A stretch of DNA of 24,648 nucleotides from a virus (Duplodnaviria; Heunggongvirae; Uroviricota; Caudoviricetes), in the IMG/VR virus record IMGVR_UViG_2684622670_000019, positions 1 to 24,648 of that record; one strand, 5' to 3'. A program made the position numbers and the translations under genes. Positions 3,858 to 8,766 of the stretch are shown in pieces; within the stretch, counting starts at the first letter, position 1; each line of letters opens with the position of its first letter. A model generated the notes under the pieces. That model was not told the origin of the DNA and did no database searches. It was given only the letters and a program-made list of their open reading frames with translations.

Positions 3858-5921
3858 CTAAGAAAAAATCCAATTACCATACATTCCAGTTATTTCACTA
3901 TACATGCCTTCTTTATTTTTTAATTTAATCCAAGCGCCGAATTCAGTGGTGGCTACTTGCGTTACTTCTGAAGAGTTACTTACAAACCTTATATTTGCTA
4001 CACCTATTGCTCTACTTGGTGATGAGATTGTCATAGCTCTTATTATTTTTAACTCTCTGAAATCACCAGTGCTACTTGCGATTATATCAATATCATTAGT
4101 GCTATGGTTAAATATAATGGTGTTATTTAACAGCTTTGTATTTTGAAAAGATGTTATTGTGGCAATCCCTCCAATAAATCCTCTTATCTGGGCCGGGCCA
4201 GTATCTCCACTATCATAGGCTAATGATGTGGTTATATTATCTTCCTCCTTTCCTATATGTATATCAATAAAGTACTCTTTTAAACTAATACCAGCCAAAA
4301 CTAAAAATGTTGATATAGTCGATGTACATTTTTTAATAACCAGATTCTTAAAATTTCGAGATAACCCGATGCTTATTGGATCAATAGTTCTAGGTAATAA
4401 TCTGATTATTTTATCCCCACCTGCTATAGTAGTTTCATCAACAATTTCACCTATTTCCACAAAAAGGCGGTCATCCCCCAGCATTTCAAAAACACAAAAG
4501 TCTAAAGGAGACGTCTTAAATACCACTCTATCAATTAAGATTTTCCCTATACCATTTCCCATAACTCTAGTAGCTGTCACCCCTCTGTTAGTCACATTCG
4601 TTAGTGTTGTATTCCCCGAGATGATTACATCAGCTACAAGACTGTCAGGGAAAATATTAAGTTCCACACCAGTATACGCACCATTGATGTATGGGTTTGA
4701 GATTTCACAATTAATCAACCGAGGGACAGTGTGTCCAGGCACACTTTCGTCTGCCTCTGGTTCAATATCTATGCCAGATTTCGGCATAGCACCTGTAACA
4801 CCTCCGTAGTCACCAATATTATAAATCTCAGGATTAACTATTATTATATTTTCACCTGACGTTAGGCTTATACCGTTACGCCTGCATTGTTTGACGATCG
4901 GTTTTTCTATATAGATATTTTCTGGAACCGTGCCATCGGTAGTCCCCCACTTCATGCCTATATATATTCCGTCGCCAAACATGTTGGTATACAGTCCACC
5001 AATAATACGAATGTTAGAGGATTGAAGTATTGTAAGCCCCCATCCATGTTCTCCTTCGGATGTGTTTGTTAACCGATCACCTTCCAGTACAGGATTATAA
5101 ATATTTACATTTTTAACACCGTTTGCTATGTAAATGATATGGCTTTGTGGCCTGTTTTGATTTGCTAGTTTTAATGCCCCATCCTTCTCAAATCTTATAG
5201 TGCTATTATCTACGCATCTTAACACAGATTTAAAAGCATCATTTCCAGGGGAAAAAGGGTCTTCATTCACAGCCATCAAGCCTTCAAATGATTTATCTAT
5301 AATGAATTCTGCACCAATAGATGCTGCGGATTCATACGCTTTTTGTAGTGTTTGTGCGTCATTGCAAAAATCAGAAGCATAAATAGAGTTGGTTTTCTTT
5401 AATTCAAATATCCTACCATTTCTGCTCCTGATAATTAATATTCCATCTGGGGTGAGCGTGGGGGTGGATGATTCATAAACATATCGACCATGAATCATTA
5501 CATGATTAAATATATCTGGGACATCCTCTTGCTCTATATTAATAGCAACATATATAAGTTTATTACTTAACTCCCCCCTTAACTGATCAGGATCATACTT
5601 CAGCACATTAGGAAAATAGAACTGCTGCGCACCATACGCATCATATACAGCCATAGAATGGCCTTGCACAGTTACGAATTTAGCAATCTGTCCGTTATAT
5701 ACCGGATATCCAGCAGCGTTAATGATTATTGGTTGCGAAACAGGAACGTGAGAACCGTCTTCATTCTCCACATAAACCTGAATCTGGTTTTCAGGATTTA
5801 CTGGATCAGTGTCAATTTTACCGATATAAATTTTGCCATTGGCAACCGCTTTAAAAGAACGCGCCATAGTGAATAGTTGCGAAGGCATACTCACTACAAC
5901 ATTGGCTGTAATATCTGTCAT
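3858..5921 (-). CDS. Tailspike protein: P22-type N-terminal head-binding domain fused to a beta-helix receptor-binding (depolymerase) domain
   Basis: 687 aa; N-terminal ~110 aa ([11 protein letters not shown]...[32 protein letters not shown]...VLKYDPDQ) closely matches the P22/Sf6/HK620 tailspike head-binding domain from memory; the remainder is a repetitive beta-helix-like sequence. SD GGAG upstream of ATG 5921. Confidence 0.85.
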
Positions 5922-6053
5922 TTAATTTGCTCCAGATACAATGAATCGCCGCAGCGTAGCTACGGTTGGCGTTTGTTACATACCGAAACGGTACGATTGT
6001 TGATTTGTACAGTAGGTTTTACGATGCCATTCCACCCATTTGGTGAGGCATTG

Positions 6054-6311
6054 ATGATGTACAGCAAATACGATGAGGCGCAGTTCCACTTGAGGCTTAC
6101 GCACGAGTTGCACGCTAAGATTAAGCAGCGTGCAAAAATGAATAACAGGTCTATCAATTCCGAAATTGTGGCTACGATGGAAGAATCTCTCTCCAAACCA
6201 TCACCTGTAAGCGGGTATCGTGATGAAGAAGAGAGACTGGCCTCATTAATCTCGGAACGAGTAAAAGAAGTTGCGGCTGAAATTCTAAGGAAAGAAAAAA
6301 CCCGCGATTAA
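6054..6311 (+). CDS. Mnt-like ribbon-helix-helix repressor
   Basis: 85 aa from ATG 6054 (MMYSKYDEAQFHLRLTHELHAKIKQRAKMNNRSINSEIVATMEESLSKPSPVSGYRDEEERLA...) aligns with P22 Mnt (..FNFRMPMEVREKLKFRAEANGRSMNSELLQIVQDALSKPSPVTGYRNDAERLA..). The longer ORF-track start at 5877 is rejected. Confidence 0.75.
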   Translation: MMYSKYDEAQFHLRLTHELHAKIKQRAKMNNRSINSEIVATMEESLSKPSPVSGYRDEEERLASLISERVKEVAAEILRKEKTRD

Positions 6312-6326
6312 GCGGGTTTAGTTTTC
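6295..6326. terminator. Bidirectional intrinsic terminator between convergent mnt-like and KilAC antirepressor genes
   Basis: 7-bp stem aacccgc (6299-6305) / gcgggtt (6312-6318), flanked by AAAAAA (6295-6300) and TAGTTTT (6320-6325). Confidence 0.5.
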
Positions 6327-6337
6327 ATTATAAAATG

Positions 6338-7063
6338 TTACGCCACATTTGAGCCATGTAGCAGGTGTTGTAGTGCTTTAACGCCTTCAGAATTGTAGCG
6401 GAACGCCTCTACCTGTTTGCTGGAATGCGCCGATTTATCCAGGAAGAACTTCCCGTACTGCTCAGTTTTGAGGTTGTTTGCGTTAGCAATGCGACCAATC
6501 TTGTTGGCCGTTACTCCAAGCTGCTCTGCAACCTCCCCTGCTGAGTAGTAATGCTCTTCTATTGCCGGAAGAGGTATTGCATTAAAACCAACAAGCGGGT
6601 TGATTATACTTGCTGCCGCTGTCTGCTTTGCCTCCGGCGCAAGATTTGGCATCAGATCGAACAGATTGGTAACAGCTTCAACCGTCATTTTCAGTGTTCG
6701 CGCTTGACGATACTCAATAAGTCCACTCGCTGATTTACCGCTTTTAATGTGTGCTTCCTGCATACTTTCAAGTTTGTCTACAAGTGTTCGGCGAACTGCT
6801 TTAGATTCGCGAGCAGCAACACGAAGCGCCTGCTTGATAGTCATGGAGATAACATCAATGTCAGCCCCGTTTTTCCGACCTACACTTTTTGTGTAGGTCT
6901 CGCCCTCCAATTCATCCTCAATTTTCTCGATGAATTTGTTGTTACGTACTGATGGCTCTCCACATAACTTGCGAGCTTCATTAACCATCATCAGAAGGCT
7001 TTGGCTGTCAATGGTTTTATCCGTGACAACGGATCCGATGTTTGCTACATTCTTCAAAGTCAT
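6338..7063 (-). CDS. Antirepressor-like protein with C-terminal KilAC/ANT-type domain
   Basis: 242 aa from ATG 7063 with SD AAGGA 7 nt upstream; C-terminal region (YSAGEVAEQLGVTANKIGRIANANNL...) resembles the phage antirepressor KilAC domain; sits in the ant position of a P22 immI-like operon. Confidence 0.6.
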   Translation of the reverse strand: MTLKNVANIGSVVTDKTIDSQSLLMMVNEARKLCGEPSVRNNKFIEKIEDELEGETYTKSVGRKNGADIDVISMTIKQALRVAARESKAVRRTLVDKLESMQEAHIKSGKSASGLIEYRQARTLKMTVEAVTNLFDLMPNLAPEAKQTAAASIINPLVGFNAIPLPAIEEHYYSAGEVAEQLGVTANKIGRIANANNLKTEQYGKFFLDKSAHSSKQVEAFRYNSEGVKALQHLLHGSNVA

Positions 7064-7100
7064 TAGGCATTCCTTATGTGGTAGTAAGGGTGTGACATAG

Positions 7101-7132
7101 GCCGCCAGCAGCACACTGGCGGTTTTCTTTTT
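7101..7132 (+). terminator. Intrinsic terminator in antisense orientation between the two antirepressor genes
   Basis: Stem ccgccag (7102-7108) / ctggcgg (7116-7122), 7-nt loop, then TTTTCTTTTT (7123-7132) on the plus strand although both flanking genes are on the minus strand. Confidence 0.55.
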
Positions 7133-7151
7133 GCGCCGTCCGGCGCACCAA

Positions 7152-7778
7152 TCAATGAATCCATTCCTCGCCGCGCAGTTTTGTCAGCATTGGCTGAGCG
7201 TTCTTTACGACAAAATTGTTGGTATCAAGATTCTTCATTTCACGAAGAAGTGATTTCTTGGTTTCTTCTGACATATAGCGAGTCTCATATGCAATATCGT
7301 AAATTCTTCCTGAAAGCTCAGAACCAATTTGCTTCATTCCTGGGTAGATGTGTTTGCACATTTGTTGACTCTTCTCCATCCACAATTGTAAGTAGCAGAG
7401 ATTAACCAGTTCTTCGTCAGTAAACTGTTTTGCAATCGGTGAGCATTCTGCCTGCCGATCCAAAATATCCAGCACCCAGCGGCGGAACTCTTTTGCTACA
7501 GGAGTGCGAGCAAACATCGCGATTAGGTGGGCACCGCGTAGTGAGAAAACTCGCACTTTTTTGCGATAATTTCCTGAGGTACTCACTTCGAGTACCTGAG
7601 TCATTCCGGCGCTAAACTCATCGCCATACTTGTTATAAATCATTGTTACTGCACGACTATTTGCGTATTTAAGTGCAGATGCAATATTAGATGATGTAAA
7701 CCAAACACCATGCATATCACGGGTGGGCACCAACTCAACTCCGTGGAAGTTGTAATCTGATTTTGCTACAATATTCAT
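7152..7778 (-). CDS. Antirepressor-like protein with N-terminal Bro-N/AntA-type domain
   Basis: About 208 aa from ATG 7778 with SD AAGGAA upstream; N-terminal half (NFHGVELVPTRDMHGVWFTSSNIASALKY...LIAMFARTPVAKEFRRWVLDIL) fits the Bro-N/AntA fold pattern; immediately downstream of the Arc-like gene. The TTG start at 7883 from the ORF track is rejected. Confidence 0.6.
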   Translation of the reverse strand: MNIVAKSDYNFHGVELVPTRDMHGVWFTSSNIASALKYANSRAVTMIYNKYGDEFSAGMTQVLEVSTSGNYRKKVRVFSLRGAHLIAMFARTPVAKEFRRWVLDILDRQAECSPIAKQFTDEELVNLCYLQLWMEKSQQMCKHIYPGMKQIGSELSGRIYDIAYETRYMSEETKKSLLREMKNLDTNNFVVKNAQPMLTKLRGEEWIH

Positions 7779-7851
7779 GTTAGTTTCCTTGCATACGGTT
7801 ACTGACATAGAGGCCCGGTTTGTGTTCGCGCACTGCCGGGCTTCGCTATTT

Positions 7852-8025
7852 TTATTGGATGACAACATCGCCCTTTGCCTCAAGTTTCATCAATAACTCC
7901 ATTCGATAAGCTATCTCTGCCTGAATTGACCTATGGCATCTTTTTGCTGATTCGCGGATATGTGAATCAACCTTTTCTGTAAAACGAACCTGACGCGGCT
8001 TGATGGAAGATATCTTTTCAGTCAT
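7852..8025 (-). CDS. Arc-like ribbon-helix-helix repressor (57 aa, below the ORF-track cutoff)
   Basis: MTEKISSIKPRQVRFTEKVDSHIRESAKRCHRSIQAEIAYRMELLMKLEAKGDVVIQ aligns with P22 Arc (PQFNLRWPREVLDLVRKVAEENGRSVNSEIYQRVMESFKKEGRIGA); SD AGGAG 7 nt upstream of ATG 8025; first gene of the minus-strand operon. Confidence 0.7.
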   Translation of the reverse strand: MTEKISSIKPRQVRFTEKVDSHIRESAKRCHRSIQAEIAYRMELLMKLEAKGDVVIQ

Positions 8026-8074
8026 TATGCACTCCTGTTTTTGAAAAACTCATAATCTCACTTTTTGTAGTTTG

Positions 8075-8103
8075 ATTATTCACTCACACTCAGTATGAGT
8101 CAA
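8075..8103 (-). promoter_or_regulatory. Sigma70-type promoter for the arc-ant operon (Pant analogue) with embedded candidate operator
   Basis: On the minus strand TTGACT (8103-8098), 17-nt spacer, AATAAT (8080-8075); the spacer contains the inverted repeat ACTCA-gta-TGAGT (8088-8100) and a further ACTCA copy at 8082-8086. Confidence 0.5.
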
Positions 8104-8124
8104 TGAATTTTTTATGGTGAACTA

Positions 8125-8766
8125 ATGAATTTTGACGATCAATTCCCATCAAGAGTATCTCTGGCAAGACAGTCCAGGGGTATGACGCAGGCGCAGTTGT
8201 CAAAATTAGCTGGTGTTGTTCAACGTCAAATAGCTGCATACGAGGGTGGTGAGGCTAAACCACGGCTTCGTGTATTGCAGGCATTAGCCAACGCATTAGG
8301 TACTACGGCTGAGTGGTTAGCTCTGGGTGAAGGTCAGGGTCCGGGAACAAAAAACGTCATGCCTGACGTTCTGGTAAAGCAAATACCAATCCTCAAACTA
8401 GATGAAGTTATGCATTACCTAAACACAGGTGAACATTCATCGTCTAGATTTCATCCGGCAATATACAATGTTGGTGACTCTGCATTTGCATTGACTATTG
8501 AAGGTGAAGCTATGACTACAAGTTCAGGCATTAGCTTTCCCAGAGGATCAGTTGTCACGTTCAGCCCTCTAGTAAAAGCTAAAAGCAAAGATTATGTAAT
8601 AGCATCATTGGATAAAGAGCAAATATTGAGCTTCAAACAGGTTTACATTGGTGAAATAGAGACAAACCTAGTATCCCTAAACCCAATGTATCCTAATATT
8701 CTTGTTAGAAATGAAGATGTTAGTATTTTGGCAACCGCAGTTTACCTTGAAATCCCGTTGCTTTGA
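8125..8766 (+). CDS. Lambda-CI-fold repressor (N-terminal XRE HTH, C-terminal S24 LexA-like domain) with catalytic Ser replaced by Ala; predicted non-cleavable
   Basis: 213 aa; HTH (MTQAQLSKLAGVVQRQIAAYEGGEAKP); C-terminal domain aligns with the lambda CI C-terminal domain (VGDSAFALTIEGEAM versus ASDSAFWLEVEGNSM; SFKQV versus TFKKL; LNPMYP versus LNPQYP). Divergent from the arc-like operon, in the P22 mnt position. Confidence 0.75.
   Translation: MNFDDQFPSRVSLARQSRGMTQAQLSKLAGVVQRQIAAYEGGEAKPRLRVLQALANALGTTAEWLALGEGQGPGTKNVMPDVLVKQIPILKLDEVMHYLNTGEHSSSRFHPAIYNVGDSAFALTIEGEAMTTSSGISFPRGSVVTFSPLVKAKSKDYVIASLDKEQILSFKQVYIGEIETNLVSLNPMYPNILVRNEDVSILATAVYLEIPLL

Follow-up and report, generated by a model that had tools for sequence, protein, structure and literature searches.

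A probable self-contained Mnt repressor cassette beside the tailspike gene of a P22-like Escherichia coli prophage

The mnt-like gene situated between the tailspike and the antirepressor genes of a P22-like prophage is, judged by homology, an intact Mnt-type repressor gene, with a sequence and a predicted specificity new among variants of this well-known repressor. Along with the operator and the promoter predicted in front of it, the gene probably constitutes a self-contained Omnt-Pmnt-mnt cassette that would regulate itself and would not control the adjacent arc-ant-KilAC operon, its product most likely being a self-regulating repressor expressed from the prophage. A P22 specialist would find nothing surprising in this arrangement. 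The practical gain lies in annotation: the predicted operator and promoter are pinpointed for a widespread Mnt variant, two repeats in the same spacer are found to differ in standing, and the ant operon is set apart.

The locus and its relatives

The window, that is, the whole stretch of 24,648 nucleotides analysed, covers the end of the late operon in a P22-like (Lederbergvirus) prophage of the E. coli type. The features relevant to the locus are listed below; the other genes of the window are virion genes on the minus strand and gtr genes on the plus strand.

3858-5921, minus strand: tailspike gene
5922-5947, minus strand: conserved tailspike 5' leader with its ribosome binding site (RBS; TGGAGC, complement of 5929-5934); the tailspike ATG is the complement of 5919-5921
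5948-5965, no strand: mosaic 'boundary sequence' GCCGCAGCGTAGCTACGG, from comparison with P22 and CUS-3; contains the 10-bp palindrome at 5955-5964
5979-5995, no strand: predicted Mnt operator CATACCGAAACGGTACG, a 17-bp near-palindrome with half-sites C(A/G)TACC, at the position and spacing of P22 Omnt
5997-6025, plus strand: predicted Pmnt (-35 TTGTTG at 5997-6002, 17-nt spacer, -10 TACGAT at 6020-6025), from positional homology to the annotated P22 Pmnt
6042-6048, plus strand: mnt RBS GGTGAGG
6057-6311, plus strand: mnt-like gene, 84 aa, stop at 6309-6311 (Pfam Arc, PHROG 795, 1mnt_A)
6298-6319, both strands: two-way intrinsic terminator with hairpin AAACCCGC-GATTAA-GCGGGTTT, common to mnt (plus) and arc-ant-KilAC (minus), overlapping the mnt stop
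6338-8025, minus strand: antirepressor operon (arc-like, ant, KilAC), from Pfam and PHROG
6338 to about 7063, minus strand: KilAC-type anti-repressor gene
7152 to about 7775, minus strand: ant, with Bro-N and P22_AR_C
7852-8025, minus strand: arc-like gene
8075-8103, minus strand: Pant-like promoter TTGACT-17-AATAAT, from a promoter scan (10/12 matches)
8125-8766, plus strand: C2/LexA-like repressor gene (HTH_3 and peptidase S24), divergent from arc, in the slot of mnt in P22
9051-11174, minus strand: gp16-like ejection protein gene

The layout described in the first-pass annotation, with the Mnt homologue between the tailspike start and the antirepressor genes and not divergent from arc, was confirmed, and gene order and strands likewise place the mnt-like gene convergent with the KilAC/ant operon. 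The segment from the gp16-like gene to the tailspike has regulators and antirepressors in between and varies in content among 80 relatives. It is an 'ant moron' in the sense of Villafane et al. 2008, a block of variable content and independent expression that separates the gene 16 homologue from the tailspike and is the sole hypervariable insert in the late operon (PMC2629481).

The 80 viral loci were retrieved by similarity of the Mnt protein and 79 of them include the upstream DNA. The comparison with related prophages that had been proposed as a check returned the same tailspike/mnt layout in every one of these 79, the tailspike head-binding domain being encoded immediately upstream of mnt in the opposite orientation. 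Downstream of mnt the loci diverge: nothing was recognised in 32 loci, a 161-aa protein follows in 12, the KilAC-ant-arc genes with a C2-like repressor, as in the window, in 13, the KilAC-ant-arc genes with a 127-aa Arc-family regulator in a further 13, and other combinations in a few. The closest phage is JEP4, whose mnt/KilA/Rha/arc/C2 block is 97% identical and whose gene is annotated as 'regulatory protein mnt'. In VSe13, IME10, Sf101 and vB_EcoP-720R6 mnt is divergent from the tailspike across a spacer of about 130 bp or less, and the divergent tailspike/mnt layout is found in the Salmonella phages ST64T and ST160 and in L too. No fewer than 63 complete E. coli genomes contain 80% or more of 5860-6340. 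According to the epsilon34 paper ST64T and ST104 have mnt alone, and in the literature the orphan mnt of the L/ST64T-type phages has no known present function (PMC2629481, PMC8022706). The layout is common, has already been annotated and is one of the ordinary forms of the 'ant moron' (PMC2629481, PMC8022706).

The mnt-like gene and its product

The claim of a clear Mnt homologue held firm. The product matched Pfam Arc PF03869 (3.2e-15, residues 8-53), PHROG 795, which is the family containing P22 Mnt (2e-32), and PDB 1MNT (1mnt_A; E 9e-16, residues 6-77), and all three agree on an N-terminal ribbon-helix-helix (RHH) domain of the Arc/Mnt type. BLASTP aligned it with P22 Mnt at 45% identity; the match takes in the N-domain, the SKPSPV-GYR linker and the C-terminal helix and reaches residue 77-78, with a C-terminal variant that differs in sequence from that of P22. 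A second ATG at 6054 would give a product of 85 aa, and relatives retain only the ATG equivalent to 6057. RefSeq names the gene merely 'Arc family DNA-binding protein', at times with an over-long open reading frame.

The gene had also been called an 'extra' Mnt. This is apt for relatives such as E. coli MS1657, in which a second Arc-family regulator sits in the arc-divergent slot, but not for the window, which has one Mnt-like gene and in that slot a repressor composed of HTH and peptidase S24 domains. In JEP4 this C2-like gene is present besides the immC c2 gene of the phage, and in other relatives a 127-aa Arc-family protein takes its slot.

Predicted operator and promoter

The intergenic region from the tailspike ATG to the mnt-like ATG comprises 132 bp (5922-6053), as first measured, and both repeats pointed out in it are present: a perfect 10-bp palindrome CGTAGCTACG at 5955-5964 and the inverted repeat TACCG-aaa-CGGTA (TACCGAAACGGTA) at 5981-5993. 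Both short palindromes were missed by the repeat search at seed 6 and were checked by direct reading and by script. In 20,000 shuffles the chance of a perfect 10-bp palindrome in 132 bp was 11.7% and that of a 5-3-5 inverted repeat in the 132-bp spacer 11.3%; neither repeat is significant alone, and only the comparison with relatives can tell signal from chance.

For the TACCG repeat this comparison was favourable. It forms the core of the 17-mer CATACCGAAACGGTACG and is conserved as the operator core in all 74 scored relatives with a QFHLRL-type strand. We aligned the tailspike-mnt spacers to the annotated P22 arc-mnt control region and found the rightward part to be homologous. P22 has, in this order, the 17-bp Omnt AGGTCCACCGTGGACCT, a single A, the -35 hexamer TTGAGA, 17 nt and the -10 hexamer TATCAT, and the geometry of the window matches it, with an operator that ends 1 nt before a TTGnnn -35, a 17-nt spacer and a TAnnAT -10; in the Sf101 group the Pmnt spacer is just 15 nt. 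The predicted operator spans about -53 to -37 relative to the predicted Pmnt, which is weak against the consensus (7/12) and was not called by the consensus promoter scan. In the comparison with VSe13, only 2 of the 57 positions of 5979-6035, which includes the operator and the -10, have changed, both in the operator centre; among the synonymous sites of the mnt gene next to it, about one in two is altered (dS about 0.9). Self-regulation, which had been suggested among other roles, fits this anatomy since the conserved predicted operator abuts the -35 of the gene's own promoter with the spacing of P22.

Two further elements in and around the spacer were considered and rejected. A conserved inverted repeat GATGCC...GGCAT at 6023-6052, in the promoter/5'UTR of mnt, was discarded as an mnt 5' hairpin: its arms are almost invariant and show no real covariation, and its 5' arm falls within the predicted -10 or upstream of it. 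A plus-strand CTGTCA-16-TACAAT (5915-5942) was discarded as an mnt promoter, as most relatives have TACAAG or TGCAAG there.

Boundary sequence and tailspike leader

The 10-bp palindrome fared differently. Its presence is not in doubt, but as a feature it is unconserved and within the reach of chance: relatives have CATGGCTACG, CGTGGCTACG or GGTGGTTACG at the site, the Sf101 group is without the segment, any 10-bp palindrome occurs there in 1 of 74 relatives, and CGTAGCTACG itself is found in the window only. We regard it as the apparent outcome of two chance substitutions in a mosaic junction. The boundary sequence in which it lies occurs twice in P22, as GCCGCAGCATGGCTACGG upstream of gene 9 and as AGCGTGGCTACGG after ant, and is annotated as bsq1 in CUS-3; in one relative (L168) it is joined to a truncated ant gene.

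On its other side the junction meets the tailspike leader, which is nearly identical to the sequence upstream of P22 gene 9. Of the 737 E. coli genomes with a hit, most match the leader and the tailspike start (query bases 1-107 of 5860-6340). An RNA structure formed in this leader from the two palindromes was rejected, its fold being no better than that of shuffles (z -0.9).

Operator type and beta-strand type

Residues 6, 8 and 10 of P22 Mnt touch the operator, as Knight and Sauer reportedly found in 1989 and as the 1MNT structure is reported to show. These positions of the beta-strand read H6-N8-R10 in P22 Mnt (PHFNFRMP) versus Q-H-R in the window protein (AQFHLRLT), and Q-N-R in ST64T and 720R6 (PQFNLRLP). 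The palindrome at the operator spot differs along with them:

H-N-R strand, P22: AGGTCCACCGTGGACCT
Q-N-R strand, ST64T, ST160 and 720R6: AGACCAC-N-GTGGTCT (AAGACCACGGTGGTCTT in ST64T and ST160, GAGACCACTGTGGTCTT in 720R6)
Q-H-R strand, window type: CATACC-N5-GGTAC

The loci were collected by Mnt protein similarity, hence the sample is unbiased by operator sequence, and CATACC-N-AAA-N-GGTAC is carried by 74/74 scored QFHLRL-type loci, other strands going with other palindromes at that spot. Variation among the 74 operators falls mainly on the two positions beside the central AAA, with changes in the half-sites in 5, and symmetric variants such as CATACC...GGTATG exist among the relatives. Five more QFHLRL loci (L165, L166, L169, L171 and L173) were unscored, having been missed by the start-codon pattern; direct reading gave CATACC...GGTAC in L165 and a symmetric GTACC-TAAAC-GGTAC in the other four. 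A natural chimaera (L175) combines a QFNLRL N-terminus and a window-type C-terminus with an AGACCAC operator. From this chimaera and the pattern in the 74 loci it follows that the operator type goes with the N-terminal strand and not with the remainder of the protein or with the surrounding genes. The dinucleotide CC holds the same position in all three half-site types and matches the invariant Arg.

A more ambitious reading, to which we give tentative and clearly less than even credence, would make Q-H-R/CATACC a third natural Mnt recognition class beside H-N-R/GGTCCAC and Q-N-R/AGACCAC and would add to it a stand-alone selected function, as an anti-antirepressor or as a governor of the tailspike. 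If this is true, the three strand/operator classes and the natural domain chimaeras would be a ready-made set for the ribbon-helix-helix recognition code, and the classes would offer a neat experimental system for RHH specificity.

The terminator and the antirepressor operon

The bidirectional terminator proposed to be common to the mnt-like and KilAC genes was recovered. It was called on both strands by the scan, its hairpin at 6298-6319 has folding energies of -15.8 and -14.4 kcal/mol (z -4.5 and -4.3, with 0/200 shuffles as good), each strand has a T-rich tail with the better U-tract on the minus strand, and it is conserved in JEP4, VSe13 and L168. Lying between convergent genes, such a two-way terminator would insulate mnt and the ant operon from each other, and on the minus strand it would stand before the tailspike gene, where P22 has the terminator of ant.

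The same arc-ant-KilAC module is found in JEP4 and in at least 26 viral loci. The operator CATACCGAAACGGTACG occurs once only in the 24.6-kb window in a search allowing up to 3 mismatches, and no operator-like site was found at that threshold in 8026-8124, the arc/ant promoter region. It is likewise found once in the complete 39-kb genome of JEP4, the pattern RTACC-N5-GGTAY being single there too. When viral contigs were searched with the pattern for an operator before arc or ant, the Mnt-linked matches listed all adjoined the tailspike, and among the matches listed to the operator plus Pmnt with a different left flank there was one, an IS insertion. Two copies of the pattern, spaced by 515 bp, were seen in four contigs, which were set aside as an unrelated phage with a repeated promoter-like element. 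In E. coli MS1657 an Mnt of 100% identity lies by the tailspike, and the arc/ant promoter region, unrelated to that of the window, comes with a different palindrome, TTGGTTCTAGAACCAA, and a separate Arc-family regulator of 127 aa; the same Mnt exists where there is no ant module, as in Sf101 and IME10 and in at least 32 viral loci. The single operator, MS1657 and the ant-less phages indicate that the ant operon is a separate module and leave control of the ant promoter by Mnt unsupported. From its predicted promoter and regulators, the arc-ant-KilAC operon is a module of its own with no sequence link to mnt.

Alternative roles of the gene

The first-pass annotation had raised action of the protein in trans on the Pant-like promoter at 8075-8103 of the arc-ant-KilAC operon. 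The two are separated by some 2 kb and are found together in about 30/80 related loci, but with no site in 8026-8124 at up to 3 mismatches, no other match in JEP4, a different promoter region served by an identical Mnt in MS1657 and the same Mnt in phages without any ant, we hold such action to be highly improbable. Still less credible, by a little, is that the gene is a decaying immI remnant devoid of present function. Pant has indeed decayed, and decay has been raised as a possibility for the orphan mnt of phage L (PMC8022706); nonetheless the frameshift in relatives envisaged for a nonfunctional remnant did not appear, as the open reading frame is intact in 75/75 relatives (84-88 aa). Its dN/dS against diverged relatives is 0.02-0.08 at dS 0.9-1.4, a sign of strong purifying selection even with synonymous sites near saturation, and the operator/promoter block is far more conserved than the synonymous sites. 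Together with the co-variation of operator and strand, this argues that the orphan mnt genes by the tailspike are functional rather than decaying.

Regulation of the tailspike, another of the roles first proposed, is weakly supported at best. Here Mnt at 5979-5995 would repress a leftward descendant of Pant that reads into the tailspike, or modulate read-through of the late operon, keeping the tailspike off in the lysogen. The operator is placed 57 bp from the tailspike ATG, where Omnt fronts arc in P22, mnt and tailspike are linked in 79/79 loci, and it has been published that the ant moron may tune tailspike expression (PMC2629481). However, at the position equivalent to P22 Pant the window has the hexamers ATGGCA and CAAATC (2/6 at the -10, with no final T), and decay is equally seen in ST64T (TCGGCA/TATATC) and in 720R6. 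The scan of the minus strand gave no leftward sigma-70 promoter in 5922-6053, nor did the alignment of P22 Pant, the leader RNA folds in an ordinary way, and the linkage is equally explained by mnt being the tailspike-proximal end of the moron; we therefore consider this role improbable. Somewhat better placed, yet on our estimate still unlikely, is a role in immunity in trans, by which the prophage Mnt would silence antirepressor promoters under Mnt control in P22-like phages with the same operator, whether superinfecting or resident in the same cell, and so guard the lysogen from induction by foreign Ant. P22 Mnt maintains lysogeny by repressing ant (PMC2629481, PMC11016777), and purifying selection acts strongly on the gene and on its operator specificity despite the lack of a further target in cis. 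Against it, none of the loci and viral-contig matches listed has this operator type before arc or ant, the tailspike being opposite in all 79 loci with upstream DNA, and the operator and Pmnt were met with another left flank only at the IS insertion among the viral-contig matches listed. Such a role is compatible with autoregulation and, if true, would supply a selective reason to keep the cassette.

Proposed mechanism

Under the preferred reading of an autoregulating cassette, the locus would be the 'left arm' of P22 immI minus arc-ant, joined to the tailspike leader via the mosaic boundary sequence. The Mnt-like protein, presumed to be a tetramer like P22 Mnt, would bind the single operator at 5979-5995. 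The geometry, the co-variation with the strand and the single site point to its own control region as the only cis target in the phage, with autoregulation and the silencing of leftover leftward initiation at the old Pant as the expected results. The arc-ant-KilAC operon would be left to its own strong promoter, the divergent C2-like repressor and the Arc-like protein, and its independence is indicated by the occurrence of the same Mnt without an ant module or with ant modules that have other regulators and promoters.

Vershon et al. reportedly found in 1987 that the stimulation of P22 Pmnt by Mnt is no more than indirect and comes from the shut-off of Pant, which overlaps it. The P22 geometry lets Pmnt fire while Mnt occupies Omnt. 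With Pant decayed, a modest autoregulation of either sign would be expected in the window, and the cassette would be expressed from the prophage. As autoregulation is then a thin reason for such strong conservation, a further role in trans or related to the tailspike is likely. Our first guess for it would be the repression of cognate antirepressor promoters on other phages, though no such target appeared among the loci and viral-contig matches listed, and our second the tuning of transcription into the tailspike.

Comparison with known systems

P22 shares with the window the position of mnt in a moron flanked by gene 16 and the tailspike, the order of RHH N-domain, SKPSPV-GYR linker and C-terminal helix at 45% identity, and a 17-bp two-fold symmetric operator 1 nt before the gene's own -35 with a 17-nt spacer, and remnants of Oarc/Pant such as CAGTAG can still be aligned. 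The strand is H-N-R in P22 and Q-H-R in the window, the C-terminal helices are different sequence variants, and the P22 operator is AGGTCCAC-C-GTGGACCT in contrast to CATACC-N5-GGTAC. Beyond the operator P22 has arc-ant with a strong divergent Pant, whereas the window has the tailspike leader and decayed Pant hexamers; unlike in P22, mnt of the window ends in a terminator common to the convergent antirepressor operon.

The phages L, ST64T, ST104, ST160 and SE1 have the order of the window, with the tailspike on the minus strand, boundary sequence, palindromic operator, promoter and mnt on the plus strand. They differ in their Q-N-R strand, AAGACCACGGTGGTCTT operator and Salmonella hosts, and have no second antirepressor module downstream. 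Among the phages of E. coli and Shigella, JEP4, VSe13, Sf101 and IME10 share the type of Mnt N-domain and the operator with the window. Sf101 and IME10 differ by a P22-like C-terminal helix and the lack of an ant module, and VSe13 by a short antirepressor gene and the 161-aa protein in place of the module. CUS-3 resembles the window in having more than one RHH regulator in one moron and an annotated boundary sequence at the tailspike junction. Its two tandem mnt genes stand together, divergent from ant, whereas in the window one regulator lies on either side of the ant operon, and one of the pair is of the HTH-S24 type.

Mosaic structure of mnt and its junctions

The mnt gene of the window was found to be mosaic, with a joint at about 6215-6311 when compared with the related loci L004, L163 and L175, the last of which combines a different N-terminus (QFNLRL) with the window-type C-terminus. 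In Mnt, the N-terminal domain assorts independently of the C-terminal helix, and at least four C-terminal variants are present. Among the loci sampled, the window-type C-terminus (RDEEERLASLISERVKEV...) was mostly accompanied by the KilAC module and by the terminator that mnt shares with it. The exceptions are the VSe13-like loci L002, L161 and L162, where a short antirepressor gene stands in place of this module. Across P22-like phages, the module junctions 5' of the tailspike gene are marked by a boundary sequence, GCCGCAGC(A/G)TGGCTACGG, copies of which lie as follows:

Window 5948-5965: boundary sequence
L006 (related locus) 2085-2105 and 2200-2216: boundary sequence, two copies
L168 (related locus) 748-766: boundary sequence

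In L168 a 5'-truncated ant gene is joined to the boundary sequence. P22 has it twice, and the ant terminator lies between the two copies together with a short segment of other sequence.

Start and upstream region of mnt

The RefSeq Mnt ORF of E. coli MS1657 (L007 6165-6452; 95 aa) begins at an upstream ATG corresponding to window position 6024, which falls within the predicted -10 box. Sequence comparison with the relatives and P22 indicates a start at the equivalent of 6057. In one viral contig (L212 12119-12160) an IS element lies directly left of the predicted operator and separates mnt from the tailspike leader, leaving operator, promoter and gene undamaged. A conserved inverted repeat was also located upstream of the gene:

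Window 6023-6052: GATGCC...GGCAT(C), extending from within the predicted -10 box (3' half) to the mnt ribosome-binding site

The repeat is found in the Q-H-R (window) and Q-N-R (ST64T, ST160, 720R6) types of the Mnt N-terminal beta-strand, and the P22 copy is degenerate. It may act as a protein site, or may form a 5'UTR hairpin if transcription starts upstream of the predicted position; among the relatives compared the arms are almost invariant and no real covariation between them was seen.

The exact 16-mer CATACCGAAACGGTAC occurs twice in an unrelated phage (L076 2615-2630 and 3130-3145; likewise L016, L023 and L060), upstream of terminase. Both copies lie within a repeated promoter-like element of ~70 bp, directly 3' of TATATA and ~25 bp 5' of a small-gene start. 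They are probably operators for that phage's own regulator, and their resemblance to the predicted Mnt operator may be coincidental.

Repressor divergent from the antirepressor operon

A second C2/LexA-like repressor gene stands divergent from the arc-ant-KilAC operon, and relatives differ at this position:

Window 8125-8766 (+), with 8026-8124 upstream of arc: C2/LexA-like repressor (HTH_3 and peptidase S24)
L007 8207-8222: palindrome TTGGTTCTAGAACCAA, in the promoter region of the 127-aa Arc-family type

In these relatives a 127-aa Arc-family protein replaces the C2/LexA-like repressor, and the promoter region and palindrome differ as well. If the repressor at 8125-8766 is self-cleaving, antirepressor expression would be SOS-inducible. 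The closest phage, JEP4, carries this repressor gene together with its own immC c2 gene. In P22 the slot that the repressor fills in the window is occupied by mnt.
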